From: an uncultured archaeon
Lineage (GTDB): Archaea; Asgardarchaeota; Heimdallarchaeia; Heimdallarchaeales; Kariarchaeaceae
DNA length: 24,000 bases
Direction: 5' to 3'
Assembly (NCBI GenBank): GCA_964600735.1
Contig: CAZRLL010000002.1
Span: 1-24,000 of the forward strand
Shown: positions 1,478 to 21,416 of the stretch, one piece after another
Numbering within the stretch: position 1 is the first letter of the stretch
How the letters are laid out: each line of letters opens with the position of its first letter
Program-made: the position numbers and the translations under genes
Notes under the pieces: model-generated
What the model was told of the DNA's origin: nothing
Databases searched by the model: none
What the model saw: only the letters and a program-made list of their open reading frames with translations

Positions 1478-1882
1478 TTAACTGGCTAATATCCCTTTCA
1501 AGGGTTCTGCAAAATCACGTATAGTGTTTAGAGTGATTCCTACAGAATGGAGTTCTTTAGAAGCACCAATAAGTATATGTTCACCTGCAGTAACCAATAT
1601 TGTAAAACCAATTTCACCTCTAATTAACATTGCTTGTAGTTGACCATGATTCATCCTAGAGGTTACCATCGTTCCAGTAGACATCACTGCGGCGGATATT
1701 GCAGATAATAAATCTGGATCAGCACCTGCTTGTACAAAAAATGCGAGCGTTATACCCTCCCGAGTGATGATTCCTAACGCTTCTAATTCACATTGTTTTG
1801 AGATAGATGTAAGGAGTTTTACCAATTCTTGTTTTTGTTTTGCATTAATCTCTGTGGACATCCGATATCTATTTCTTTTCAT
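1478..1882 (-). CDS. Roadblock/LC7 (MglB-like) domain protein
   Basis: The core QELVKLLTSISKQCELEALGIITREGITLAFFVQAGADPDLLSAISAAVMSTGTMVTSRMNHGQLQAMLIRGEIGFTILVTAGEHILIGASKE matches the Robl/LC7 alpha-beta-alpha pattern (gv.ga.lv..dGl.la..., then i......l......g..L.v.a). The start is uncertain: TTG 1924, ATG 1882 or ATG 1861. The N-terminus is a short basic extension. Confidence 0.65.
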   Translation of the reverse strand: MKRNRYRMSTEINAKQKQELVKLLTSISKQCELEALGIITREGITLAFFVQAGADPDLLSAISAAVMSTGTMVTSRMNHGQLQAMLIRGEIGFTILVTAGEHILIGASKELHSVGITLNTIRDFAEPLKGILAS

Positions 1883-2051
1883 ACTAGGTTTAGTATTTTT
1901 TCTTGAACCATATTGAGGATTCAATTAAAAATTGTTTAATTAAGGTGATTTTTGCATGATATCAATAAACGTTATTTCTTGAAATCCCATCTAAATCTGA
2001 GATGACATGTCATGTATCCAAAAGACAATAAATATTTATAAGAAAAAATAG

Positions 2052-2642: not shown

Positions 2643-2733
2643 TGGGCCTGGTGAGATTTGAACTCACGACGAACCGGTGTCTCAATGAAAAATTATGAGC
2701 CAGCCACTCTAACCAGGCTGAGTTACAGGCCCT
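2643..2733 (-). tRNA. tRNA-Met (anticodon CAT; elongator type, or tRNA-Ile2 if C34 is modified) with a ~15-nt canonical 37/38 intron
   Basis: The minus-strand read is GGGCCTG TA ACTC AGCCTGGTTA GAGT G GCTGG CTCATA[ATTTTTCATTGAGAC]A CCGGT TCGTC GTGAG TTCAAAT CTCAC CAGGCCC A. The acceptor, D and T stems are perfect. The insert (about 2679-2693) lies directly 3' of the anticodon. It is not initiator-like: it lacks the AGCGGG 5' end and the three G-C pairs at the anticodon stem. Confidence 0.75.
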
Positions 2734-5692: not shown

Positions 5693-7186
5693 ATGTCTCT
5701 GGAAATAACTCCTCTTAGATTAATTATGTTTACATCAGAAACTTGTGTATACTGTCCACCAATTGAAACAATAGTGAGAGAAGTTGTTGGATCTGGTATG
5801 CAGGATCTGGTTCATGTATCAACAATTGATATTGACGATGATCATGAAGCTAGTTCTCGATATCAAATTCAATCTCTTCCAACCTTAGTCATAAATGATG
5901 AAATTGTCTTGCAGGGTGGAATGGATGATGATTCAGTTAGAGATCTATTGTGGTCAACATTATTAAATCAAGCGATAACTTCAGAACAGGCAATTACGTT
6001 GACGAAAAATTCTTTACTTGCACTTACTATGAACGCAATGGATTCTCTCAATGGTTCAAAAGTATTAAGACCATCGGTAGGAGACTATACTCATATCGGT
6101 GTATTTCAGCAATATCTTTTGAGTCTTTATAGCTTAGATCCATTAATTCCACATTTGTTGTACAAAGCAGGCTATCAATTGGGAATGTTTGGGATGATGC
6201 ATCATGTGTTGACATTACTCAATCCTAAACTTGGCAGAACCCCTAAAAGAGATCTAAGATTCAAACACTTAGCCTATGCTTTAACTCTCTATTTTTCGGA
6301 TAGGGAGATTCTTCCAACATTACTTGCAGAATCTGCGAACGTTGTTAAAATTACAGACACCCAGATAGATCTCCGAGTAAATGACATGGCTTCAGCGTCT
6401 ATTAGGATCGATGTAGGTGAACCCATGTGTGGATTTTTTGCTGGACAACTTGCTGGAGTTACTGCTGCGGTTATGGGGATGTCTGGAACTGCTGCTAGTT
6501 GTGAAGAATTAATTTGTATGGCTAATGGTGGTGAATATTGTCTATTCCAAATATCTATTGCTGGGGAAGAATTAGCAGAAAAACCACTTCCTCCACTTGA
6601 AAATAAGGAGGAACGTGCAGGAAGGAGGCAAAACTTCTATGAAGTCATTCATGAAATGACAAATATTATTCAAGATAGTAATTTGATGATTAAAACTCAA
6701 CGAGTTAAAGTTAGAGACTTCATTCACATATCTGTTTTACAACCAATAATAATATCAATTAAATTCCTAGATAGATTTTCAGGGACAATTTTGTATAATG
6801 GAGGAAAAGAATTGGGAGTATTTGGACCGGGGAAACAGTTACTAATTCGATTGGTTCAAGAGGAAGGAATACAAGTTCCCGTGCCTCTAGAAAAAGCTGT
6901 AAATCTATTATTGGCATATTTAAGACACCCGACAACCATGCTTGGGAGAGAACATGGTCTAGTTAGGCTGAATCACGAAGACGATGACAGTTATACCTTA
7001 GAAATTGATGATAGTGTAAGTATCGCCGGAATGCAGACAGCAGAACTTAATAAAACATTTTGTGATTTTCAAGCTGGATTTATTGCTGGTAGATTATATA
7101 TTCTTGTTGGAAAGGATCCAATAGTGAAAGAAATAGAGTGCCAAGGAACTGGACATCAAACTTGCAAATATCGAATTACGGTTTAA
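5693..7186 (+). CDS. Fusion protein: N-terminal thioredoxin/glutaredoxin-like domain (CVYC) followed by two V4R (4-vinyl-reductase / Bet3-like) domains
   Basis: The Trx-fold signature is RLIMFTSETCVYCPP...SLPTLVIND (CxxC at 5744-5755). There are two copies of the V4R C-terminal signature: CGFFAGQLAGV...CEELICMANGGEYCLFQISI and CDFQAGFIAGRL...IECQGTGHQTCKYRITV. Confidence 0.7.
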   Translation: MSLEITPLRLIMFTSETCVYCPPIETIVREVVGSGMQDLVHVSTIDIDDDHEASSRYQIQSLPTLVINDEIVLQGGMDDDSVRDLLWSTLLNQAITSEQAITLTKNSLLALTMNAMDSLNGSKVLRPSVGDYTHIGVFQQYLLSLYSLDPLIPHLLYKAGYQLGMFGMMHHVLTLLNPKLGRTPKRDLRFKHLAYALTLYFSDREILPTLLAESANVVKITDTQIDLRVNDMASASIRIDVGEPMCGFFAGQLAGVTAAVMGMSGTAASCEELICMANGGEYCLFQISIAGEELAEKPLPPLENKEERAGRRQNFYEVIHEMTNIIQDSNLMIKTQRVKVRDFIHISVLQPIIISIKFLDRFSGTILYNGGKELGVFGPGKQLLIRLVQEEGIQVPVPLEKAVNLLLAYLRHPTTMLGREHGLVRLNHEDDDSYTLEIDDSVSIAGMQTAELNKTFCDFQAGFIAGRLYILVGKDPIVKEIECQGTGHQTCKYRITV

Positions 7187-7401: not shown

Positions 7402-7770
7402 ATGGCCCGCCGTCGTAAAAGATCATTCGATAGTTTGGATGATCTGCTACCTAATGAATTAATTGAATCAACAAGTGGCTCGACTGTGGTAGAACTTAAA
7501 GCAATTGTGAATCAACTTGAAAAACAAATGCAAGATATGATTGATAAATATGAGAAGCAAATTGAACAACTATCTGAAAGATTAGAATCAATCGAAAGTG
7601 ATTTTGGTCAAGTTGTTGAGACACTAAAATCACCTGATGCTTCTTCAGGGGGTCAATCTATTCCTTCTAGTCCGGTTAGTAGTTCAATGCCGCCACCAGC
7701 AGCAGCCACTACACCACCATCAACCACTCCCCCACCATCAGGGGGACCCAAACCTCCATCTTTAGGTTAA
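7402..7770 (+). CDS. Hypothetical coiled-coil protein with a Pro/Ser/Thr-rich low-complexity tail
   Basis: 122 aa. It has a basic N-terminus (MARRRKR), a heptad-like stretch (LKAIVNQLEKQMQDMIDKYEKQIEQLSERLESIESDF), then SSMPPPAAATTPPSTTPPPSGGPKPPSLG. That tail is encoded by a locally GC-rich patch (~7688-7760). I saw no SD, and coding status rests on ORF length only. Confidence 0.4.
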   Translation: MARRRKRSFDSLDDLLPNELIESTSGSTVVELKAIVNQLEKQMQDMIDKYEKQIEQLSERLESIESDFGQVVETLKSPDASSGGQSIPSSPVSSSMPPPAAATTPPSTTPPPSGGPKPPSLG

Positions 7771-8573: not shown

Positions 8574-9242
8574 TTATTTGTCACTACTGCCTAATTCTTC
8601 CTTCAAAGATTTTAATTCATCTTCAAGATCATTTGTTGACTCTTTTTTCTCATTTTCACCTGAAGTAGATGGAGTCGTAAGCATGCCGGCTTCGGGCAAG
8701 TCACCATGAGATTCGGATTGCATTTCCAATTCAAGAGCAGCTAGCTGATCATCGATTGAATCAGCAAATTCACCATCCAGATCCATTTCAAGACTTGAAA
8801 CATCTGATAACGATTCAGTCATCATAGAAATCCTGTCCCGTTGATCATCCATCTCAACTATGGTCCTTTCAACGTCTAATGGAGATATTTGTTCTAATGT
8901 ATCTTCAACAACTTGACTACCTACTTTCAAAGCAGTTACTGTTTCTGCTGTTGATTTTGCAGTTGAGATTGTATCAATTTGAGTTGATAAATTTAAACTC
9001 ATATTTTGACTTTGATTGTATTTTTGCATATACAAGCTGCTTCGCGTTAGAGCTTGTCTGGCACCAACCTTGTTCCCAGATTGAACCATAGATTTGGCAA
9101 CTTGCTTTTGTTCTTCGGATTTTCTAAGAAGATTCCGCCCTTCTACTTCCAAAGAGTTAAGTTGTTTTTTTAACTTCTGGAGCGCTTCAGCCTCCTTATT
9201 ATCACTCTTACCCTTACCAAATAACCATGATTTGATACCCAA
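8574..9242 (-). CDS. ESCRT-III subunit, Snf7 family, Vps20/32/60 (CHMP4/6)-like
   Basis: It has an N-terminal membrane-insertion-like motif (GIKSWLFGKGK) and a basic helical hairpin (LQKLKKQLNSLEVEGRNLLRKSEEQKQVAKSMVQSGNKVGARQALTRSSLYMQKYNQ). The C-terminal half is acidic and ends in a MIM-like helix (DLEDELKSLKEEL). The start is a TTG, with GGAGG (9251-9255) 8 nt upstream and no alternative start that keeps the conserved N-terminus. Confidence 0.85.
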   Translation of the reverse strand: MGIKSWLFGKGKSDNKEAEALQKLKKQLNSLEVEGRNLLRKSEEQKQVAKSMVQSGNKVGARQALTRSSLYMQKYNQSQNMSLNLSTQIDTISTAKSTAETVTALKVGSQVVEDTLEQISPLDVERTIVEMDDQRDRISMMTESLSDVSSLEMDLDGEFADSIDDQLAALELEMQSESHGDLPEAGMLTTPSTSGENEKKESTNDLEDELKSLKEELGSSDK

Positions 9243-9245
9243 TTT

Positions 9246-9857
9246 TTATTCCTCCTTTTTCCTTAAAGATTCTATTTCTTTCTCTAATTCTGATGTTTTC
9301 GTTGTAGGCATTGGTAATCCAACAGAAGCAGTTATTCCAACTTCTGCACCATATTCCTGGAGTAGATTGTCAATTTCCCCCTCATCGGTATCAGATTCAA
9401 ATAGTTGATCCATGCTGTCTTCCATAATTTCTGATGTGTCTTCAATGCCTTCAAGAGCTTGATTCATGTCGCCAACCAAATTATCAATCTCAGGTAGGTT
9501 TAAAGCGTTGTTTGCATCAATCAATGATTTTGAAACACCTCTCATTTCCTTTGCGATATCTTGGACAGCATCGGCTCGCTCTAACTTGAAAATAAGTCCA
9601 TCAATCTTGCTAATGAGAGATTGATATCCTCTCCCCCATTTTCTTGAACGCACGGTATCTTGTGCATACATACGTGCAGCCTGCATATCTCCTTTTTGAA
9701 TTGCTGCTCGAATTTTTCGTTCAGTTTTCTTTTCTTGATTTTCAAGCTTACGCTGAGATTTTGTCAATCTTCGATTGACAAGTTTCAAATTTAAAGTGTT
9801 GTCACGACTGGATCTTGTACTTTTACCTCCAACAAGCCATCCTAGTATATCTCTCAA
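9246..9857 (-). CDS. ESCRT-III subunit, Snf7 family, Vps2/24/46 (CHMP1/2/3)-like
   Basis: The N-terminus is RDILGWLVGGK. The core KLVNRRLTKSQRKLENQEKKTERKIRAAIQKGDMQAARMYAQDTVRSRKW matches the Vps2/CHMP2 pattern (Rel.r....le.qekk....IKka.kkG....Aki.A.d.vr.r). The C-terminus is acidic and ends in an amphipathic MIM-like helix (SELEKEIESLRKKEE). The start is a TTG, the first start-type codon after an in-frame TAA at 9885-9887. Confidence 0.85.
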   Translation of the reverse strand: MRDILGWLVGGKSTRSSRDNTLNLKLVNRRLTKSQRKLENQEKKTERKIRAAIQKGDMQAARMYAQDTVRSRKWGRGYQSLISKIDGLIFKLERADAVQDIAKEMRGVSKSLIDANNALNLPEIDNLVGDMNQALEGIEDTSEIMEDSMDQLFESDTDEGEIDNLLQEYGAEVGITASVGLPMPTTKTSELEKEIESLRKKEE

Positions 9858-10140
9858 TTTTAATTCACTCGTATTATATTGTGCTTACATTAATTATTAA
9901 TTTTCCCTTTAATAAAAACTTCCTATTGGAATGTCATAATGATCGCGCGAATTTGGCTCGAAAATACTTTAATTCATATCATACAATTATAAATATTGTA
10001 CTTGATTGATTTGTGTCCATTGTAATAATTGCTGTAACTAATATTGGGAATTTTCCATCCAGTCATTATTATCAGACAAAGGTATTTATCAAATGAAAAA
10101 TATTTTTTATTTTGTAGCAGTAACCAGAGTGGGTGATTTA
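9858..10140. promoter_or_regulatory. Divergent promoter region between the ESCRT-III operon (-) and the Vps4-Vps25 operon (+)
   Basis: This is a 283-bp AT-rich spacer between divergently oriented genes. It has a TATA-like ATTTATCA at 10084-10091 and an SD-like GGTGAT at 10132-10137. An isolated perfect GC palindrome, TCGCGCGA, sits at 9943-9950. The exact elements are unverified. Confidence 0.3.
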
Positions 10141-11289
10141 ATGAGTCAAAATTTATATGCAAGAGCCAGAGTACTTGCTGAGCAAGCAGTCGAAGCTGAT
10201 AATGCACAGAAATATGGGGATGCACTTAACATGTATCTCCAAGCTGCAGAAATCTTGCTCGAGATGACCAAATTCACATCGAATTCCAGACTCGTTGACA
10301 CCTATGAAAGCAGGGCGAAAGAATATATTGCTCGTGCCAAGGTCCTTAAGCCATTGAGTCTGCAGAAAAAAAGTATAAAATCAGATAGATCAAGTGATTC
10401 ATCAGATGATTCTGAACTTGACAGTTCATTGGAGGATGCAATTGTTTCAGAGATACCTGATGTTACATTAGATGACGTGGCAGGACTTACCGATGCTAAA
10501 ACCGCTTTGCGAGAAGCGATTGTTTTACCATTACTTCGACCTGATTTATTTACAGGATCGAGACAGCCTTGGAGAGGTATATTATTGCATGGACCCCCCG
10601 GTTGTGGAAAAACTATGATTGCTAAAGCTACTGCTGGTGATGTTGAGGCAACATTTTTCAATATTTCTGCAGCTACTTTGGTAAGTAAATGGCTGGGAGA
10701 GAGTGAGAAGTTAGTAAAAAGGTTATATGAAATTGCAAAAGATAAGCAACCCTCAATAATTTTTATTGACGAAGTCGATTCCCTGACCCAAACGAGGGGA
10801 GAGGGAGAAAATGATGCGATGAGGAGAGTTAAGACTCAATTATTAACAAGCATGGAAGGATTGTCATCAAAAAAAGGAGATCGAGTAGTCACAATCGGAG
10901 CAACAAATATTCCATGGGAAATTGATTCTGCTTTTAGGCGAAGATTCCAGAGAAGAATATACGTTTCATTACCCGATATAGAGGCAAGGGAAGTGATCTT
11001 CAAAATTAATTCCAAAGGGATTGAACTTAACCCTGACATCGATTTCAATGAACTTGCGAAAATGACAGAGGAATATTCTGGATCGGATATTGCAAATATT
11101 TGCCGTGAAGCAATAATGAAACCGATACGCGATTTAGATACTAGTGATTTAATTTTGGATTTGGAAACAAAAGCAAGACCTGTTGTCCACAGTGACTATA
11201 TTAGTGCACTTGAAAATGTTCGCAAGTCGGTATCTGCCTCAGAATTGGCAAAATTTGATGAATGGGACAATGAATTTGGAGCAGGCTAG
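10141..11289 (+). CDS. vps4: Vps4-type AAA+ ATPase (MIT domain plus a single AAA cassette)
   Basis: The N-terminal MIT-like three-helix region is ARVLAEQAVEADNAQKYGDALNMYLQAAEILLEM...YESRAKEYIARAKVL, followed by a Ser/Asp-rich linker. Walker A is GPPGCGKT (10591-10614) and Walker B is IIFIDEVD. The second region of homology is ATNIPWEIDSAFRRRFQRRIYVSLPD, and the Vps4-type C-terminal helix is ELAKFDEWDNEFG. The ATG at 10141 is preferred over 10093 because of the adjacent SD-like motif. The extra 16 aa from 10093 are hydrophobic and not MIT-like. Confidence 0.93.
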   Translation: MSQNLYARARVLAEQAVEADNAQKYGDALNMYLQAAEILLEMTKFTSNSRLVDTYESRAKEYIARAKVLKPLSLQKKSIKSDRSSDSSDDSELDSSLEDAIVSEIPDVTLDDVAGLTDAKTALREAIVLPLLRPDLFTGSRQPWRGILLHGPPGCGKTMIAKATAGDVEATFFNISAATLVSKWLGESEKLVKRLYEIAKDKQPSIIFIDEVDSLTQTRGEGENDAMRRVKTQLLTSMEGLSSKKGDRVVTIGATNIPWEIDSAFRRRFQRRIYVSLPDIEAREVIFKINSKGIELNPDIDFNELAKMTEEYSGSDIANICREAIMKPIRDLDTSDLILDLETKARPVVHSDYISALENVRKSVSASELAKFDEWDNEFGAG

Positions 11290-11293
11290 TTTA

Positions 11294-12016
11294 ATGTCAG
11301 TAAAAGAGCGTCCTGATAAGAAAAAAGAAAAAGAAAAAGTAGATAATTATAGTGCAAAAAATGAGGATAAATCGATAGAAGACTGGTTGGATAACGTTTC
11401 GCTTGATCCTCCCGAACAAACTCCTAAAACGAGCTCTGAAGACCCCCATATCGCACAATCAAAAGAAGAAATTCAGATAGTGTCCCAGGATAAGCACCAT
11501 GAATTCATTGTTTCATTACCATCTTGGATTTCTAAACCCTGGATGTATGTTCAACCAACCCATCAAAATCAGTTGGAATCGTGGTTGGATTCGTGGAAAA
11601 AAGTAATTGTAGATTATTCGCGTATTTTAACTTTACATGTCATTAACATATCGGAGTTGATCAACCAACACCCGTTTAATAATCACGAACTCAATAAAAG
11701 ATTAACAGGAGATATTATTAATAATATCTTTGAACATATGATACAAGATGGGTTAGCGAAATGGCTTGACGAGAATCATATTTTAGTACGAATATATTAT
11801 AAAACTAATGAACAGTGGAGTTCAATTATTATGGAATATTTGATAAATACCGGACTAGCAGCTGAAGTCTTAACACTTTATGAGGTGGAAAAATTAGAAC
11901 AAGAATGGAGTTCAATTCCTCGTAATGAATTGGTGGAAATATTTGACATTCTAGTAACCAAAAAAAGAGCAGGATGGGTGGGAGATACCAAAGACACACT
12001 AACGTTTCATTTATGA
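11294..12016 (+). CDS. ESCRT-II subunit, Vps25-like (tandem winged-helix) with an ~85-aa charged N-terminal extension
   Basis: FIVSLPSWISKPWMYVQPTHQNQLESWLDSWKKVIVDY aligns with the Vps25 hallmark F.WP....FPPFFTLQPN..TR..QL..W..LIL.Y. It is followed by ...ELINQHPFNNHELNKRL... and ...EQWSSIIMEYLINTGLAAEVLTLYEV..., as in Vps25 WH1/WH2. The ATG lies 4 nt after the Vps4 stop. The ORF-track start at 11183 overlaps Vps4 and is rejected. Confidence 0.8.
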   Translation: MSVKERPDKKKEKEKVDNYSAKNEDKSIEDWLDNVSLDPPEQTPKTSSEDPHIAQSKEEIQIVSQDKHHEFIVSLPSWISKPWMYVQPTHQNQLESWLDSWKKVIVDYSRILTLHVINISELINQHPFNNHELNKRLTGDIINNIFEHMIQDGLAKWLDENHILVRIYYKTNEQWSSIIMEYLINTGLAAEVLTLYEVEKLEQEWSSIPRNELVEIFDILVTKKRAGWVGDTKDTLTFHL

Positions 12017-12100
12017 TTGATGATTGAATTTCTTGTTAATAATATTTATTGTTGAATCTAGTGTACTATTGATATTTCACTTTTAATTCGCTTTTTTCGA

Positions 12101-12826
12101 TCATTGTTGTCCAAGACTCGGGAACCAGTATTTTATTCCCTCATGGTATGATTCGTCCTTTAAGGTTATTCCCTCTTTAATTAATTCTTCAATTACTCTT
12201 GTCACCCTTTCAGGAGGCCAACCAGTATACATAATAAGTGATTCTTTTGTTAGGAATCCGTGTCGAGCTGCCAAATCGAATACATTTTGTTGGTCTTTAG
12301 ATAATTCGATTGCAATAAATTCAACAATCAAGACACCAGATGGTAATTTTCTCAAAGGTTGGATTAATTTTGAATCAACTAGAGAGTTTAATGACCGTAT
12401 TGCATCCTTGGGTGGTACCAATTTTCCAGGGCGAGATTTATTAATTTTTATAACTAATTCAGCAACAGATATTAAACCCCCTGTATCTTGCACAAATGAT
12501 TTTCCTAATTCAAGTATTTCATTTGCGAGTTGATCAAAATAACCCTTACCTCTGATTCGATCCATAACTGATGGACTCTCTTTCCAATCATAAATTCCAA
12601 CTTCTTCCGGTAATCCCAATTCTTCACGAATAACCGCGATTTTTTCGTAATAATCCTTATTATTTCGAATTTCTTTTCCATGTTTCTTTTCGAATTTCTT
12701 TAACTGTTCTTTAAGAGTTTCAACATTTTCGATAAGATTATCCAACTCAAGTAGCATCATTTCTGCTTCTTTGCGCTGATATGCGCTTTTGGATTTGATC
12801 TTCCTCTCGATATCTCTTAATCCCAT
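12101..12826 (-). CDS. ESCRT-II subunit, Vps22/Vps36-like (EAP30 domain)
   Basis: An N-terminal helical/coiled-coil segment is followed by an EAP30-like tandem winged helix: DTGGLISVAELVIKINKSRPGKLVPPKDAIRSLNSLV...LPSGVLIVEF...LTKESLIMYTGWPPERVTRVIEELIKEGITLKDES..GIKYWFPSL. Compare the Vps22/36 pattern GGmi.l.d.y...R...vSp.Dl..A...l...sG..v.q...ws..ra...L...G..w.D....yw.p. The start ATG overlaps the Vps28-like stop (TAATG). Confidence 0.8.
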   Translation of the reverse strand: MGLRDIERKIKSKSAYQRKEAEMMLLELDNLIENVETLKEQLKKFEKKHGKEIRNNKDYYEKIAVIREELGLPEEVGIYDWKESPSVMDRIRGKGYFDQLANEILELGKSFVQDTGGLISVAELVIKINKSRPGKLVPPKDAIRSLNSLVDSKLIQPLRKLPSGVLIVEFIAIELSKDQQNVFDLAARHGFLTKESLIMYTGWPPERVTRVIEELIKEGITLKDESYHEGIKYWFPSLGQQ

Positions 12827-13437
12827 TACAATTCCTTCAAATGTCTGCGAAATTCGTTTAACCAGCGTACTGCGTCAAATTCTAACTTCTCACACTGCTC
12901 ATCGGATAGAACCATTGTGGGTTTCTCATCTAGTAGTGTCTTTCGCCAACCGTTTAATTCAATGATGGACCAATGATCTTCACCTAATTTTGGAAAATTT
13001 ATCAAAATATTGTACATGTCATCTAATAAAGGTACGAGATATTCCACTTTAGCTACCGTTCTTAATTTTAATAAATCAATCAACTCAATTGCATTTGCTA
13101 CATAATCAGCAGATTTTACAGGTAATTCCTTTAGTTCTTTATACTCTAGTGATATTGCATCAGAGTCTAATCCTTCAACAAGATCCAATCTTCTCATTCC
13201 TTCAGGGAACTTGTTGGTCAAATCTTCACGTTCAATAAAATCTGTCAGATTGAAACCTTGTCTTTCCAATTGTAATCTGGCTTTGAAAACATCAGAAATG
13301 CATGACTTCAATTGTCTTCGATAAAGCGTCTCTTCAACCAATCCCTTATCAAAATATTTTGATAATTGGTCCATTGTAGCAATGGCAGCATATAGGTCTG
13401 CTTCAACTTGTAATGGGTCTTTTTGTCTTCTCTGCAT
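12826..13437 (-). CDS. ESCRT-I subunit, Vps28-like
   Basis: The N-terminal core LYAAIATMDQLSKYFDKGLVEETLYRRQLKSCISDVFKARLQL matches LYsii.t.e.LEkay.kd.i...eY...c.kLl.Q.k. The C-terminal four-helix-bundle region EYLVPLLDDMYNILINFPKLGEDHW..LNGWRKTLLDEKPTMVLSDEQCEKLEFDAVRWLNEFRRHL matches the Vps28 CTD pattern (..W...L..m.a.deL.e.q.rql.fDle.aY..F...L). Confidence 0.8.
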   Translation of the reverse strand: MQRRQKDPLQVEADLYAAIATMDQLSKYFDKGLVEETLYRRQLKSCISDVFKARLQLERQGFNLTDFIEREDLTNKFPEGMRRLDLVEGLDSDAISLEYKELKELPVKSADYVANAIELIDLLKLRTVAKVEYLVPLLDDMYNILINFPKLGEDHWSIIELNGWRKTLLDEKPTMVLSDEQCEKLEFDAVRWLNEFRRHLKEL

Positions 13438-14107
13438 AATTAGGTCCCTCTATTTGTAATAATTCTCGGGTCGCAATGTATAGCTCACGGATGTATTTTC
13501 GATATAATCTAAAGAAATCAACTTGGTCAATATCCGCTTCCTCAAACTTAATGGTTATTAATTCCAGCAGATCATTAATGGCAAGTACCTGGCATTCTGC
13601 ATCCATTTGTCTCGATATTTTAAATGACCCACCAACTGCGACATCAACTCCTGCCTTTTGGAGTTGATCAGTTTTTATTTCAGCTATTTTTCGGTTATAT
13701 TCAGCTATTTGTTTCTGAAGAGAAACGATTTCCTGTTCCAGCTTGCCCTCGAGCATCGAAATATCTTTTACACCACGTGTTATGGATGTTCTAGAACGAA
13801 TGAATAACCGACGAGTTGTAGATATCACATCTTTTAATCGATATGTAGGTTCCCACTCGTCCAATAATTGCAGGGCTAGTGTCTTATTTGAATTAATATT
13901 AGGATGACGAATTTCTGTTAATACGTTGACATCAGGCCTGATTACTGGATAAAATTCCGGTAAAGTAATTCGAATTCTGATGTCGTCACCTGATGCCGTT
14001 CTTCCAACCTTTCCGACGAAGGCATTTCCATGTGCTTGAAAGGTTGGTTCATTTCGAAAAATCCAATCAAGCTCTTGAGCAATAATTTTTCCTGTGTCAA
14101 TATCCAT
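13403..14107 (-). CDS. ESCRT-I subunit, Vps23/Tsg101-like: UEV (catalytically dead E2 fold), coiled coil and steadiness-box-like C-terminus
   Basis: The E2/UBC-fold core is IRITLPEFYPVIRPDVNVLTEIRHPNINSNKTLALQLLDEWEPTYRLKDVI. It keeps the HPN motif (13904-13906), but the catalytic Cys position is Ala (GCC, 13874-13876). A coiled coil follows (LEGKLEQEIVSLQKQIAEYNRKIAEIKTDQLQK), then a C-terminal helical hairpin (INDLLELITIKFEEADIDQVDFFRLYRKYIRELYIATREL). The ATG at 14107 has AGGTGG (14120-14125) 12 nt upstream. The ORF track extends to a TTG at 14185. Confidence 0.7.
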   Translation of the reverse strand: MDIDTGKIIAQELDWIFRNEPTFQAHGNAFVGKVGRTASGDDIRIRITLPEFYPVIRPDVNVLTEIRHPNINSNKTLALQLLDEWEPTYRLKDVISTTRRLFIRSRTSITRGVKDISMLEGKLEQEIVSLQKQIAEYNRKIAEIKTDQLQKAGVDVAVGGSFKISRQMDAECQVLAINDLLELITIKFEEADIDQVDFFRLYRKYIRELYIATRELLQIEGPNYAEKTKRPITS

Positions 14108-14334
14108 TTTGCTTACTGACCACCTACTCTCATGTATTTCCCAATGTAAATAATTACGATTGTACAAGATAATAAGGTTAAGCAATTTGATAGTTACTTT
14201 TGTTAGAATTATTTATTATTTTGCTCAAGAATTTTCGATCCACTCTTTATGACAGTCAGATATGATATGATCTTTTTATAATATTTTGAAAATATTACTC
14301 CTAAAACTAATTTTGTATTAAATCAATTAACCCA

Positions 14335-16305
14335 TCATTCGTCAATTATAGGTAGAAAACGAACCTCTGGAAAAGACCAAAACACATTTCCATCCGTTAC
14401 CTGACGAAGAGTATCAGCTAATTTGGAACTATTTTTGACTGGAATGATTGCTTTAATATTACATTCGTCCTCTGTACTTACCTCTTCAATAGATGCTCTA
14501 TATTTCTGTAATTCATGTAAGGTGTTACCTAAGTAGGTATCTCCCACATTAATATCAATTGTATAATATGGTTCATGTTGTGTACTTTTCGTAAAAACCA
14601 ATGCTTCTCGGATCAAAGTTGATGCAGTGATCATTCCACTCTCATAACTGGGAGAAGACTTAGTAATAAGATAGGATTCAACTATTAACGTAAAATTTTT
14701 AATCCTGCCGCCCGAAATAGGGGATATCCTCATGGTCTGCTTGAATACATCAATAAAACCTTCTAATACTTCTTTTTCTATATCACAATGAAGAACAAGT
14801 TGATTCGAATGATTATCTTTGAAAAAAATATTCCTTTCATCAACTTGGGTAAATTTTGACGACCTCCCTGCGTGAATCGAAATTTTAGGATTTTTAGAAA
14901 ATACGAACATGGATTCCATCAAGGGCATCTCAAATTGTAAAATAATTGGATCAGAAACTTCAATTTCAAAATCCATATTTTTCAATTCAGATGCTAGAAC
15001 ATCTAATTGTAACGTGCCTACTCCGAGGAGAAGTAATTCGCCAGTATCTTGATTTGATTCAAATTCTAAACCGGGTGTTGCCTGAACTAATACTTCAATC
15101 ACCTCTTGTAATCGGCTAATGTCATTAATTTTAAGTGGTTCAATACTAATTGCAACAACTGGATCCTGAACATAGGAAATATTTTTTAAAAAAAAGTTCT
15201 TCTCTTTCGGAGGAACAAGTAAATCACCAGGCATTATGGGTTTATTAACAATTAGTCCCCCAATTTGACCAGCTGTTAACAGAGGCACATCTTTACTAGA
15301 TCTACCATGTAACTCGATAATTCGCATAATGCGTAAATTTTCACTATTAAGGGAAGATTGAAGTTTCTGACCTCGTTTCAATGTTCCCGATGCCACTCGT
15401 ACAATGGATGCCCATTGTTTGCCATGATCCAGCCTTACAAACCGTCCAACTATTGTGATCGGAACACCTAATTTACTACATGAATGCAATTCTGCTAGTA
15501 AACCATCTGGAATTTTATTTAATAGCATGTTTGGAAATTTATATTTTTGACCCTCAATTGGGGAAGGAAGATTTTCAACGATACATCGGGTTAAAGTGGC
15601 AGCGAGATTTGTATTATCAGGAAACTTGTTAATTGTATCATTTTGGTAGATTTCAACAACATCACTTAATTTTCCATTCTCCTTCACAAAAAAATTATCC
15701 ATCGCCCAACCATCAGTTGCAGAGCCAATAATAACAGATCCTACTGAAAATTTCGGTAAAAATTGTTTTTCAAAACCGTAATGCTCACAAATTGTGTGAA
15801 TCTCGCTAATTATTCGTTCTAATCGTTGTTGAATTGTTATTATTGGTAACTCTAACTCGTTAATTAAACGATCTACTTTGTTTATGAATAAAACAAGTTT
15901 AAGTTTCTCTCTGATTGCTTGACGTAGTACTGTCCTTGTCTGAGCCATTATACCCTCAACCGCGTCAACAAGAATTAATCCTCCATCAACAAGTCTTAGA
16001 GATTCTGCTACTTTCCCTGAAAAATCAACATGACCTGGAGTATCAATTAAATTGATATGATAGTTTTTATTATTATATTCTAATTGAAAAGTTGCTAGAG
16101 TTGTTTCAATGGTAATACCTCTGCGCTGCTCTTCTGGTAAAAAATCCAAGGCTCGTAATGTACCTGCTAAATGTGAGGGTATCATTCCTCCAGAAGCTAT
16201 TAGATGATCAGAAAGAGTTGTTTTTCCATGATCCACATGAGAAATAATTGATAAATTTCTGATGAGTTGAACGTTATTATTATCAATTGGTTTTTTGTTT
16301 TTCAT
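14335..16305 (-). CDS. Elongation factor 2 (EF-2/EF-G family) paralogue, short and lacking the diphthamide-acceptor His motif
   Basis: The GTPase motifs are G1 SHVDHGKTT, G2 RGITI, G3 DTPGHVDF and G4 NKVDR. Overall collinearity is with aEF-2, including the domain V-like C-terminus (HEPYYTIDINVGDTYLGNTLHELQKYRASIEEV...IKAIIPVKNSSKLADTLRQVTDGNVFWSFPEVRFLPI). It is only 656 aa. Where EF-2 has H-x-D-x-x-H-R-G, this protein has ITKSSPSYESGM (14632-14667). Confidence 0.85.
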   Translation of the reverse strand: MKNKKPIDNNNVQLIRNLSIISHVDHGKTTLSDHLIASGGMIPSHLAGTLRALDFLPEEQRRGITIETTLATFQLEYNNKNYHINLIDTPGHVDFSGKVAESLRLVDGGLILVDAVEGIMAQTRTVLRQAIREKLKLVLFINKVDRLINELELPIITIQQRLERIISEIHTICEHYGFEKQFLPKFSVGSVIIGSATDGWAMDNFFVKENGKLSDVVEIYQNDTINKFPDNTNLAATLTRCIVENLPSPIEGQKYKFPNMLLNKIPDGLLAELHSCSKLGVPITIVGRFVRLDHGKQWASIVRVASGTLKRGQKLQSSLNSENLRIMRIIELHGRSSKDVPLLTAGQIGGLIVNKPIMPGDLLVPPKEKNFFLKNISYVQDPVVAISIEPLKINDISRLQEVIEVLVQATPGLEFESNQDTGELLLLGVGTLQLDVLASELKNMDFEIEVSDPIILQFEMPLMESMFVFSKNPKISIHAGRSSKFTQVDERNIFFKDNHSNQLVLHCDIEKEVLEGFIDVFKQTMRISPISGGRIKNFTLIVESYLITKSSPSYESGMITASTLIREALVFTKSTQHEPYYTIDINVGDTYLGNTLHELQKYRASIEEVSTEDECNIKAIIPVKNSSKLADTLRQVTDGNVFWSFPEVRFLPIIDE

Positions 16306-19289: not shown

Positions 19290-21416
19290 ATGAAAAAAGA
19301 GTCACAGTATTATATTATTGCATTAGTTGTATTATTCTTGTTGAATCCTACTACAATTCAGATGGGAGCTAAAACGGATGCAAACCATGATCAGTCATTA
19401 TCTCCTGAAAGTTATAATCCCAAATTTGATCTGTTCAACATAAGAGATCAAATGACACTCACACCAATCTTTACTCCCGATAATGCCTTATCTTCGCATA
19501 TTGGATGGATTAACCAAGCAAATTCAACAATTGACATCCAGAATCAATATATCAAATTTTTTGATTCTTATGATGATTGGGAAACAAATCCCACTCCATT
19601 TGTAGCAGCTTTATTAAATGCAAAATTACGAGGAGTGAGTATCCGGGTACAATTAAGAGATAATGAAAGTAATGAGATCGAACCTTTTCTTTTGAATAAG
19701 GGAATTTCTGTAAAGTACATGGGGTCTTTAATTAGCAATACAGATGATGACGACTGGTTATCGAATACTCATAATAAGTTAATGATTATAGATGAAAGTG
19801 TAATACTTATATCATCAATTAATTTTGGAAGTGGATTTATAAACAGTAGAGAAGCAGGTATTGTTGTTCAAAACGCTCAAGCTGCAAATTACTTCACTTC
19901 AATTTTTGAAAATGACTGGGTGGATGGAGAAGTTCCTGTTTTTCGATTAACTGATCCTGGAATTATATCAGAGAAAATTGTTACAAACAGTGTGGATTAT
20001 CCCAGTCATACCAATATTCCTAAGACAAATTTTACTGGAATATACAACATTACTCTTTTTACTAACCCGGACAATGCTGATGGGGTGATTTTTAATTTCT
20101 TGAAAGCAGCAAAAAAATCGATTTATGTTTCAATGTATACAATTTCTAGACCCGATTTCAATAACACACTAATTAATCTCAAAAAAGCCAATCCCTCGAT
20201 TGATATACAAGTATTAATTTCCAGTCGACGAGTTGGTAAATATGAAAATATTGATACATGGTCTGCAGTTAAATCATTAGTAGACAATCTAATTCCGGTA
20301 TATAATGCATCTGTGGATACTTTTATTGATCAAGCTGGGTTTTACCATAATAAATATTGGATAATTGATGGTGAACATACCTTCGTTTATAGTGGTAATT
20401 GGAGTCCCAGAAGTGTAACACCTGTGGAAACACAATATTCTTCCGATGAGGGAAATAGAGATATGGGAATAGTAATCCATGATGCCACTGATATTGCTGA
20501 TTTTTACAAGAATGTATGGGATCAAGATGTTTTAGTTGCAGATAAGTGGGAACTCCCAATTGGGATTAAGCAGACTAGTTTTCAAACTGCTGATGTTGTT
20601 TATGGTTCAATCACTCTTTCGGCAAATATTAACGGTTTAAATAATCCAACTGTTTCATATCGTTGGGGGAATGGGGATTATCATCAGGTGAGTTTAACCA
20701 ATAACACATTTTCTGAAGAATTTGATACAACAACATTCGAAAATGGAATTACAACATTTGAGGTCAGAGCAGAAGAAGTAACTCAAGTTTTTACCGATAA
20801 AGTGATTATTAATGTGGTCAACTTGGTCGAGAATGATAACTGGAGATTTTTAATAACTGAATTGTTACCAAATCCTGAGGGTACAGACTCCGTTGCCGAA
20901 TTTATTGAATTAACGAATAGCTTTCCATTTGATTTATTGATTGAAGACTGGCAGATTGGTGATGATAGTGATTTGTTCTCTTTTAAGGGGGGAACGAAAA
21001 TAAAATCATATTCTTCGATAATATTGGCAAAGGATAAATCAGGATTTGAAAGCACATTTAGTATAACTGCGGATTATGAATTTAGATTTACTCTGAAAAA
21101 TACCGATGGAGACTATGTACGATTGCTGGACAATCATGAAGAATACATGGATGTCGTTGCCTATGGATTGGATGCACCTGATGGCTCTGAAAAATTATCA
21201 ATTCCAGATTCAGGAGAATCAATCTTGAGAATAAACTTACATATAGACACTGATGAAGCAGCAGATTTTACATTTGGTGAACCAGATCCCAAGGGAGAAG
21301 TTCCACAGATTTCTATGGGGATTTTAGAAACAGACGAGACAGCTGCACCTATTATAACTCCATGGATATTTCTAATAATCTCGATGCTCCCAATTTATTT
21401 GAAGAAACAAAAGTAA
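19290..21416 (+). CDS. Secreted/membrane-anchored phospholipase D-superfamily enzyme (two HKD motifs) fused to a lamin-tail domain (LTD)
   Basis: The N-terminal signal/anchor is MKKESQYYIIALVVLFLLNPTT. HKD motif 1 is HNKLMIIDESVILISSINFG (from 19770) and HKD motif 2 is HNKYWIIDGEHTFVYSGNWS (from 20346). The LTD signature is ITELLPNPEGTDSVAEFIELTNSFPFDLLIEDWQIGDD. The C-terminal hydrophobic segment with a basic tail is PIITPWIFLIISMLPIYLKKQK. Confidence 0.8.
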   Translation: MKKESQYYIIALVVLFLLNPTTIQMGAKTDANHDQSLSPESYNPKFDLFNIRDQMTLTPIFTPDNALSSHIGWINQANSTIDIQNQYIKFFDSYDDWETNPTPFVAALLNAKLRGVSIRVQLRDNESNEIEPFLLNKGISVKYMGSLISNTDDDDWLSNTHNKLMIIDESVILISSINFGSGFINSREAGIVVQNAQAANYFTSIFENDWVDGEVPVFRLTDPGIISEKIVTNSVDYPSHTNIPKTNFTGIYNITLFTNPDNADGVIFNFLKAAKKSIYVSMYTISRPDFNNTLINLKKANPSIDIQVLISSRRVGKYENIDTWSAVKSLVDNLIPVYNASVDTFIDQAGFYHNKYWIIDGEHTFVYSGNWSPRSVTPVETQYSSDEGNRDMGIVIHDATDIADFYKNVWDQDVLVADKWELPIGIKQTSFQTADVVYGSITLSANINGLNNPTVSYRWGNGDYHQVSLTNNTFSEEFDTTTFENGITTFEVRAEEVTQVFTDKVIINVVNLVENDNWRFLITELLPNPEGTDSVAEFIELTNSFPFDLLIEDWQIGDDSDLFSFKGGTKIKSYSSIILAKDKSGFESTFSITADYEFRFTLKNTDGDYVRLLDNHEEYMDVVAYGLDAPDGSEKLSIPDSGESILRINLHIDTDEAADFTFGEPDPKGEVPQISMGILETDETAAPIITPWIFLIISMLPIYLKKQK

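Follow-up and report, generated by a model that had tools for sequence, protein, structure and literature searches.

A compact ESCRT locus of minimal Asgard composition on a probable Heimdall-group archaeal contig

[quoted passage not shown] The question is raised by seven contiguous open reading frames (ORFs) at positions 8574-14185 of a 24-kb stretch of metagenome-derived DNA (contig CAZRLL010000002.1, positions 1 to 24,000; hereafter the window, meaning the whole stretch that was analysed). Asgard ESCRT loci are central evidence that the membrane-remodelling and ubiquitin-sorting machinery of eukaryotes predates eukaryotes, and the Heimdall-group lineages are those placed closest to eukaryotes. 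A sequence-only reading of the window had described the seven genes as a complete eukaryote-type ESCRT-I, -II and -III plus Vps4 machinery of a 'Loki-like' Asgard archaeon. Our analysis supports that interpretation in part: it was right in substance, wrong on the lineage and overstated on completeness. With high confidence, we assign the seven genes to an Asgard archaeon of the Heimdall group, most likely a member of the Kariarchaeaceae or a close relative, and read them as its ESCRT locus, which carries the whole pathway in its minimal Asgard form in three tightly packed units.

The seven ORFs are contiguous and lie where they had been placed, in the strand pattern that had been described: two ESCRT-III genes on the minus strand, Vps4 and Vps25 on the plus strand, and the genes of a UEV-Vps23-like protein, Vps28 and a Vps22-like protein on the minus strand. 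The profile search that had been proposed as a check was run against Pfam, with the curated gathering cut-offs as the family criterion (scores are given below as bits / cut-off). It returned significant family matches for all seven proteins, including VPS28, EAP30 and Vps25, each ORF scoring above its cut-off, and all seven family calls thus stand.

The cluster recurs in related genomes, in the same order in L002 and with its genes reshuffled yet still linked in L004, L006, L007 and L082-L084. One of the comparison loci (L002) has the identical seven-gene arrangement; two others (L004 and L006) carry UEV>Vps28>EAP30>Vps4>Vps25 on a single strand; and L007, from the Atabeyarchaeia, has the same genes as L004 and L006 with a TnpB-like gene inserted. 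L003 holds only IIIB<IIIA< >Vps4, followed by an EF-2 paralogue, and in L082-L084 the entire TFS-PCNA-V4R-TFE-ESCRT neighbourhood is present. Since the cluster recurs in independent metagenome-assembled genomes (MAGs), chance can be set aside.

The scission module, ESCRT-II and Vps28

The two ESCRT-III genes form a minus-strand unit in which a 203-aa protein (9246..9857; TTG start; Snf7 85.7 / 27.3) is encoded upstream of a 222-aa protein (8574..9242; TTG start; Snf7 58.2 / 27.3). The upstream protein is of the A type (ESCRT-IIIA; Vps2/24/46 or CHMP1-3 class), since its best matches in the PDB are CHMP1B (E 2.7e-21), CHMP1A, CHMP2A, Vps24 and CHMP3, and the downstream protein is of the B type (ESCRT-IIIB; Vps20/32/60 or Snf7 class), since its best PDB match is the ESCRT-IIIB of Heimdallarchaeota AB_125 (9ftl, E 1.9e-48), followed by yeast Snf7; the A/B assignment and gene order of the earlier description are therefore confirmed. 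On inspection of their sequences, both proteins have conserved hydrophobic N-termini and acidic, Leu-rich C-terminal tails. In ESCRT-IIIB the N-terminus (M)GIKSWLFGKG is conserved in L002 and L003; conserved in ESCRT-IIIA are a hydrophobic segment at the N-terminus, (M)RDILGWLVGG, and the tail at the C-terminus, TSELEKEIESLRK. Of the 'Hofund' helix of AB_125, the residues F2 and F5 are missing in the window. The TTG starts of both genes (window 9855-9857 and 9240-9242) are also kept in L002 and L003.

Divergent from this unit, across an AT-rich intergenic stretch (9858..10140, read from the sequence) that from the gene arrangement is presumed to hold the promoters of both flanking units, lies the gene of the AAA+ ATPase Vps4 (10141..11289, plus strand; 382 aa). 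Its MIT (45.6 / 30), AAA (140.5), AAA_lid_3 (49.6) and Vps4_C (29 / 21.3) domains all score above the Pfam cut-offs, and the Walker A (GPPGCGKT) and Walker B (IIFIDEVD) motifs, the pore loop (KWLGESEK) and the arginine fingers (RRRF) could be located. Yeast and human Vps4 align with the protein over MIT and AAA (E 2.5e-88), yeast Vps4 across residues 25-360, and the MIT domain gives a higher score with eukaryotic VPS4A/B than with crenarchaeal CdvC. The ORF itself opens at 10093 (398 aa), but the gene most likely starts at 10141: alignments with homologues begin only at residue 14-17, the homologues have called lengths of 383 aa, and a GGTGA motif stands just upstream.

ESCRT-II is represented by two genes that converge on each other. 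Vps25 (11294..12016, plus strand; 240 aa; ESCRT-II 79.7 / 27) belongs to the family of the tandem winged-helix ESCRT-II domain (PF05871), and its PDB matches are 9uyv, an 'ESCRT-II complex subunit' (E 5e-20), 7pb9, the 'Tandem WH domains of Vps25' (E 2.6e-17), and human VPS25 (3cuq_C, E 5e-9). The gene call on the NCBI contig (L001) places its start at 11294 and not at the ORF start at 11183 (277 aa), and a charged N-terminal extension of ~80 aa lies outside every match. The other ESCRT-II gene (12101..12826, minus strand; 241 aa; EAP30 81.3 / 26.8) is separated from the end of Vps25 by a convergent intergenic stretch of 84 bp (12017..12100) with T-runs on the plus strand, which may act as a terminator. 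The EAP30 domain spans residues 2-225 of this protein and, since it fills the whole chain, the protein is without a GLUE or NZF module; human SNF8/VPS22 (E 5.8e-15) is a better match than VPS36 (E 3e-7). By sequence, then, the EAP30 protein is Vps22-like and not Vps36, in line with Hatano et al. 2022 (PMC9192718).

The Vps28 gene (12826..13437, minus strand; 203 aa; VPS28 49 / 24.5) encodes a protein whose match to the VPS28 family (PF03997) covers profile positions 2-187 of 188. A phmmer search of the PDB sequences found no Vps28 chain, and the protein was compared by structure, using an AlphaFold2 model built from 32 homologues with a predicted local distance difference test (pLDDT) score of 85. 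In Foldseek, the C-terminal half of the model matches the Vps28 C-terminal domain 2j9w, with a template modelling (TM) score of 0.87 and a root mean square deviation of 1.5 Å, as well as 2g3k and 2j9v; for the N-terminal half, the matches are chains from the ESCRT-I headpiece of human (6vme) and from the Vps23-C:Vps28-N subcomplex of yeast (2f6m). With headpiece and C-terminal domain both matched in this way, the protein is a full-length Vps28. Longer Vps28 homologues of 302 and 348 aa were considered as possible UEV fusions and rejected, the extra length consisting of disordered N-terminal extensions only.

The spacing of the genes supports their division into three co-directional units. The ESCRT-IIIA and ESCRT-IIIB genes are 3 nt apart, with GGAGG upstream of the ESCRT-IIIB start; the Vps25 start follows the Vps4 stop by 4 nt; Vps28 and the EAP30 gene are joined by a TAATG overlap; and the UEV gene overlaps Vps28 by 35 nt. 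These short spacers and overlaps, together with the Shine-Dalgarno-like motifs, suggest that translation within each unit may be coupled and may in this way set the ratios of the subunits.

The UEV-Vps23-like protein and its overlap with Vps28

Does the locus also encode the ubiquitin-recognising part of ESCRT-I? The candidate is a protein with an E2 fold (13403..14107, minus strand; UQ_con 38.6 / 27), whose gene starts at the ATG at 14107 (234 aa) and not at 14185, to which the ORF extends (260 aa), as judged from the gene call on L001 and the alignment of homologues. The catalytic Cys of E2 enzymes is replaced by Ala in this protein (HPNINSNKTLALQLL as against HPNV..SICLDIL in Ubc13), and none of 16 homologues has a Cys at the catalytic column. 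In the AlphaFold2 model (pLDDT 77.5), a UBC fold (residues 1-104) is followed by a helix of 33 residues (119-151) and a hairpin (166-187/195-219), and Pfam Vps23_core (PF09454) recurs at the hairpin position in 8 of 15 homologues, with 13-19 bits. By this model the protein is UEV-Vps23-like, with a UEV domain, a predicted stalk helix and a helical hairpin. Foldseek of the model returned ordinary E2 and Mms2 structures and not TSG101/Vps23 specifically, so the UEV call itself rests on the absent Cys and on the gene context.

Several points weigh against the interpretation of the locus given above. The window copy has no match to Pfam Vps23_core or UEV; the Vps23_core matches within the family all lie under the cut-off of 26.8 bits; and a profile of the C-terminal half of the UEV family, compared with the PDB for a steadiness box, gave only coiled-coil noise (RevCC, the Mre11 tail and Csm1). 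In addition, neither the 24-kb window nor those flanks of L004 and L007 that were scanned yielded a gene for ubiquitin, E1, E2, E3 or a deubiquitinase. The cascade proposed below, including its interactions, ubiquitin binding and membrane activity, is carried over from homologues, and the placement in the Kariarchaeaceae rests on the names of best hits. The steadiness box, which is predicted from the model and the sub-threshold matches in homologues, is the least secure element.

The alternative is that the 234-aa protein is no ESCRT-I subunit but belongs to a distinct Asgard group, 'UEV_X', known in Gerd-, Heimdall- and Kariarchaeia from Lu et al. (10.1101/2023.07.25.550441), or is a degenerate E2 linked to vps28 by nothing more than its position beside it. 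The missing Vps23_core and UEV matches of the window copy would fit such a protein, as would the label 'ubiquitin-conjugating enzyme E2' that NCBI gives to its homologues, but we consider this improbable, since the 3' end of the UEV gene overlaps the start of vps28 and the UEV>Vps28>Vps22 linkage is kept in L002, L004, L006 and L007. Furthermore, Vps23_core is the only Pfam family that recurs on the hairpins of the homologues, with no match to GvpG (PF05120); the model has a stalk and a hairpin, as Vps23 does; and Heimdallarchaeota AB_125 carries the same parts fused to Vps28. We therefore keep the protein as a UEV-Vps23-like subunit. To judge from its gene overlap and linkage with vps28, and by analogy with its homologues, it would bind ubiquitin and assemble with Vps28; both properties have been shown for homologues from Heimdall and Odin archaea (Hatano et al. 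2022, PMC9192718; Lu et al. 2023, 10.1101/2023.07.25.550441).

The public labels of these ESCRT-I families are of little help: Vps28 homologues are recorded as 'hypothetical protein', which is uninformative, and homologues of the Cys-less UEV-Vps23 as 'ubiquitin-conjugating enzyme E2', which is misleading (P0011, P0025, P0030, P0032 and P0036).

Where the UEV-Vps23 and Vps28 genes overlap (13403..13437, minus strand), the 35 nt code twice and out of frame, once for the UEV tail (...AEKTKRPITS*) and once for the Vps28 start (MQRRQKDPL); the bases of the Vps28 N-terminus, read in the other frame, give the conserved UEV tail KTKRPITS. An out-of-frame overlap of 35-47 nt is kept in most relatives: L004 (about 6576-6622) and L006 (about 6570-6616) have a homologous one of 47 nt whose stop has the same position as in the window, in three lineages altogether, whereas L002 has none. 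The overlap contains an A-run (ACAAAAAGA), and Vps28 lies in the +1 frame. It is conceivable, but unsupported and very unlikely, that some ribosomes shift by +1 and produce a fused UEV-Vps23-Vps28 protein beside the split form; if they did, a single locus would yield both split and fused ESCRT-I, the fused form resembling the product of the single AB_125 gene. We rank more highly the idea that the overlap may represent the state from which a single-base change made the AB_125 fusion.

Composition, proposed pathway and lineage

How much of the eukaryotic machinery is present? The description 'complete eukaryote-type' was too strong, since the set is without Vps37, Mvb12, Vps36 and ESCRT-0, and the window holds no gene for ubiquitin or for an E1, E2 or E3. 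Among the ORFs of the window, and likewise in the flanks scanned around L004 and L007, there was no Vps37, no Mvb12 and no Vps36 with its GLUE or NZF module. In composition the locus agrees instead with the minimal, reduced Asgard set of Hatano et al. 2022 (PMC9192718). The grouping of its genes is also published: vps25 stands with vps4 and ESCRT-III, and vps22 with vps23 and vps28 (Makarova et al. 2024; Hatano et al. 2022, PMC9192718), and both the composition and the grouping in the window match these descriptions exactly, in agreement with the earlier remark that the system was probably already known as a class. For Kari-, Gerd- and Heimdallarchaeia, Lu et al. 2023 (10.1101/2023.07.25.550441) report that ubiquitin lies outside any cluster with UEV-Vps23, which fits the window as well. 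The statement that ESCRT-I and ESCRT-II occur among prokaryotes only in Asgard archaea is dated, since Makarova et al. 2024 report ESCRT-I-like and ESCRT-II-like proteins in non-Asgard archaea.

The current picture is left unchanged: what such a locus contains, how its genes are grouped and that ubiquitin is unlinked to it in this lineage have all been published (Makarova et al. 2024; Hatano et al. 2022, PMC9192718; Lu et al. 2023, 10.1101/2023.07.25.550441). What the locus adds is one more compact, apparently intact example from the Heimdall group, Kariarchaeaceae-like and with separate UEV-Vps23 and Vps28 genes. Its proteins are unnamed in the databases searched, where their homologues appear under the labels given above, and the locus could be of use in comparisons or in biochemistry, such as studies of ESCRT-I in its split and fused forms.

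One close comparison is with Heimdallarchaeota AB_125 (Hatano et al. 2022, PMC9192718; Souza et al. 2025, PMC11804906), which, like the window, has an A-type and a B-type ESCRT-III protein, Vps4, Vps25, a single Vps22-like EAP30 protein and the parts of ESCRT-I. In AB_125, however, UEV, Vps23 and Vps28 are fused in one protein whose gene lies near ubiquitin, whereas in the window UEV-Vps23 and Vps28 are separate genes with the out-of-frame overlap described above and no ubiquitin gene nearby. In this respect the window resembles the Asgard UEV-Vps23 family of Lu et al. 2023 (10.1101/2023.07.25.550441) and the ESCRT-I of Odinarchaeota, which have separate UEV-Vps23 and Vps28 proteins and in which a Cys-less UEV domain is followed by a stalk and a hairpin of the steadiness-box type, both predicted in the window copy. 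Ubiquitin binding and steadiness-box ubiquitylation have been shown for the UEV-Vps23 proteins of other lineages.

With the pathway of yeast and human, the window shares the protein families, the inferred order of action, the two-domain Vps28, an MIT domain in Vps4 nearer to VPS4A/B than to CdvC, and the division of ESCRT-III into A and B types, which corresponds to the CHMP1-3 and Snf7 classes. Unlike eukaryotes, it has no Vps37, Mvb12, Vps36 (GLUE/NZF), ESCRT-0 or Bro1 in the window, its genes are arranged in operon-like units, and it has two ESCRT-III paralogues as against about eight or more. Its UEV domain is also nearer to ordinary E2 enzymes than to eukaryotic TSG101.

Experiments on homologues (Hatano et al. 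2022; Lu et al. 2023; Souza et al. 2025; Espadas et al. 2025) suggest how the products of the seven genes may act together. The UEV-Vps23-like protein would recognise ubiquitin through its Cys-less E2 domain and would join Vps28 through the stalk and the hairpin (the putative steadiness box), probably as a dimer and with a stoichiometry of 2:1. Vps28 would then provide, through the four-helix bundle at its C-terminus, the link to ESCRT-II, which would consist of a dimer of the Vps22-like protein together with Vps25, and Vps25 would bind and recruit ESCRT-IIIB. ESCRT-IIIB may polymerise on the membrane in arrays and recruit ESCRT-IIIA, which, with its putative N-terminal amphipathic helix and together with Vps4 and ATP, would tubulate and cut the membrane. 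The MIT domain of Vps4 would engage the C-terminal tails of the ESCRT-III proteins, and ATP hydrolysis would remodel the polymer. Cell division, vesicle budding or protein sorting are the candidate processes that such a cascade could serve.

A rival proposal would be that the locus encodes a Cdv-type cell-division system, composed of ESCRT-III and Vps4 only, and that the four neighbouring genes encode unrelated winged-helix, helical and E2 proteins. The crenarchaeal Cdv system does share with the window an ESCRT-III homologue and a Vps4-type ATPase with an MIT domain that would recognise its tails; ESCRT-III and Vps4 serve division in other archaea; and NCBIfam names just two of the proteins, its best named models being CdvC for Vps4 (310 bits) and CdvB for ESCRT-IIIA (18 bits). 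These scores, however, lie far below the equivalog cut-offs of 650 and 370, which argues against a Cdv system, and Pfam and family scans of the window ORFs gave no CdvA-like ORF. Vps25, EAP30 and VPS28, on the other hand, score above their Pfam cut-offs, the PDB and structure matches of these proteins are specific to ESCRT-I and -II, and the linkage of their genes to Vps4 is kept across MAGs. A Cdv-type locus is therefore very improbable. This evidence speaks only against a composition of the Cdv type, and the ESCRT system as a whole may have a role in division.

From which archaeon does the locus come? By Vps4, the closest genomes are Candidatus Heimdallarchaeota MAGs with 79, 75, 72, 71 and 61% identity, followed by Atabeyarchaeia with 51%. 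Among named homologues, those nearest to Vps28 come from 'Candidatus Kariarchaeaceae archaeon' (84, 80 and 77% identity), and so does the one nearest to the UEV protein (66%). These best hits indicate that the contig probably comes from the Heimdall group and, within it, from the Kariarchaeaceae. The sequence-only reading had inferred a Lokiarchaeon, and the low GC content (about 33%) and the ESCRT clusters known from Lokiarchaeia would agree with that origin, but we give it hardly any credence, since Heimdallarchaeota or Kariarchaeaceae is the name borne by every close relative of Vps4, Vps28 and the UEV protein, and ESCRT-IIIB matches the AB_125 protein (E 1.9e-48) far better than it does 9fn1, the other Vps20/32/60-like PDB chain (E only 2.7e-07, source organism not determined). 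UEV-Vps23, moreover, is reported to be missing from Loki- and Thorarchaeia (Lu et al. 2023 bioRxiv, 10.1101/2023.07.25.550441), and this report, like the non-clustering of ubiquitin described by the same authors, fits a Heimdall-group window.

Archaeal context and neighbouring genes

That the contig is archaeal and Asgard, as had been concluded from the letters alone, is borne out by its Heimdall-group relatives and by its flanks, which carry TFS, PCNA, Gins51, eS27, TFE, two tRNAs, an EF-2 paralogue and a Roadblock protein. Although the ESCRT families are eukaryote-typical and the contig is of metagenome origin, the idea that eukaryotic DNA was misassembled onto it can practically be dismissed: the GC content is even (0.29-0.39 across the window); the genes have no introns, follow one another after 3-4 nt or overlap, and show Shine-Dalgarno-like motifs and TTG starts; only 20 bp separate the end of TFE from ESCRT-IIIB; and the TFS-PCNA-V4R-TFE-ESCRT neighbourhood was assembled independently from other samples (L001 and L082-L084), synteny across MAGs that excludes a chimera and makes the cluster a feature of the lineage. 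The same exact proteins are found on the NCBI contig (L001; 87,448 bp) and in an independent ENA assembly, and all but one of them are the sole member of their 90%-identity cluster.

Two of the related arrangements contain genes that are not in the window cluster. In L082 (8505-9533), L083 (4583-5611) and L084 (4593-5621), an extra gene of 342 aa stands between Vps25 and EAP30; by eye, its product has hydrophobic N- and C-terminal segments, suspected to be a signal peptide or a membrane anchor, and an HDLIH motif. It has no Pfam match, has no counterpart in the window and is not ESCRT-like, and was rejected as an ESCRT gene. In the complete Atabeyarchaeia genome of L007, the TnpB-like gene (10763-12025, minus strand; 420 aa), with a Cas12f1-like TNB domain, lies between EAP30 and Vps28.

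On one side of the window cluster, directly upstream of the UEV-Vps28-Vps22 unit and co-directional with it, lies the gene of the EF-2 paralogue (14335-16305, minus strand; 656 aa), which scores 360 bits with the aEF-2 model as against a cut-off of 738 and has no EFG_IV Pfam match; its counterpart in L003 (9208-11157) also stands next to ESCRT genes, and this repeated adjacency may be functional or may be inherited synteny. On the other side, a protein of 497 aa (5693-7186, plus strand) combines an N-terminal thioredoxin-like domain with two V4R domains, its position being kept in L082 and L085. Between this gene and TFE, in a position that is kept in relatives, is the gene of a 122-aa coiled-coil protein (7402-7770, plus strand) that has no family match and has a Pro/Ser/Thr-rich tail with the motif PSSP. 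This protein was considered as a putative UEV ligand and rejected as pointing to an ESCRT partner, since its position by TFE is kept only within the wider conserved block and the Pro-rich tail is missing from homologues of 80-90 aa.

The second of the two tRNA genes (2643-2732, minus strand; 90 nt) was missed by ARAGORN and has an Rfam match to the full 71-position model, consistent with an intron-containing archaeal tRNA. Further from the cluster are the gene of the Roadblock/LC7 protein (1478-1924, minus strand) and that of a 708-aa protein (19290-21416, plus strand) with two phospholipase-D domains and a lamin-tail domain, both of which are potentially membrane- or GTPase-related Asgard features.

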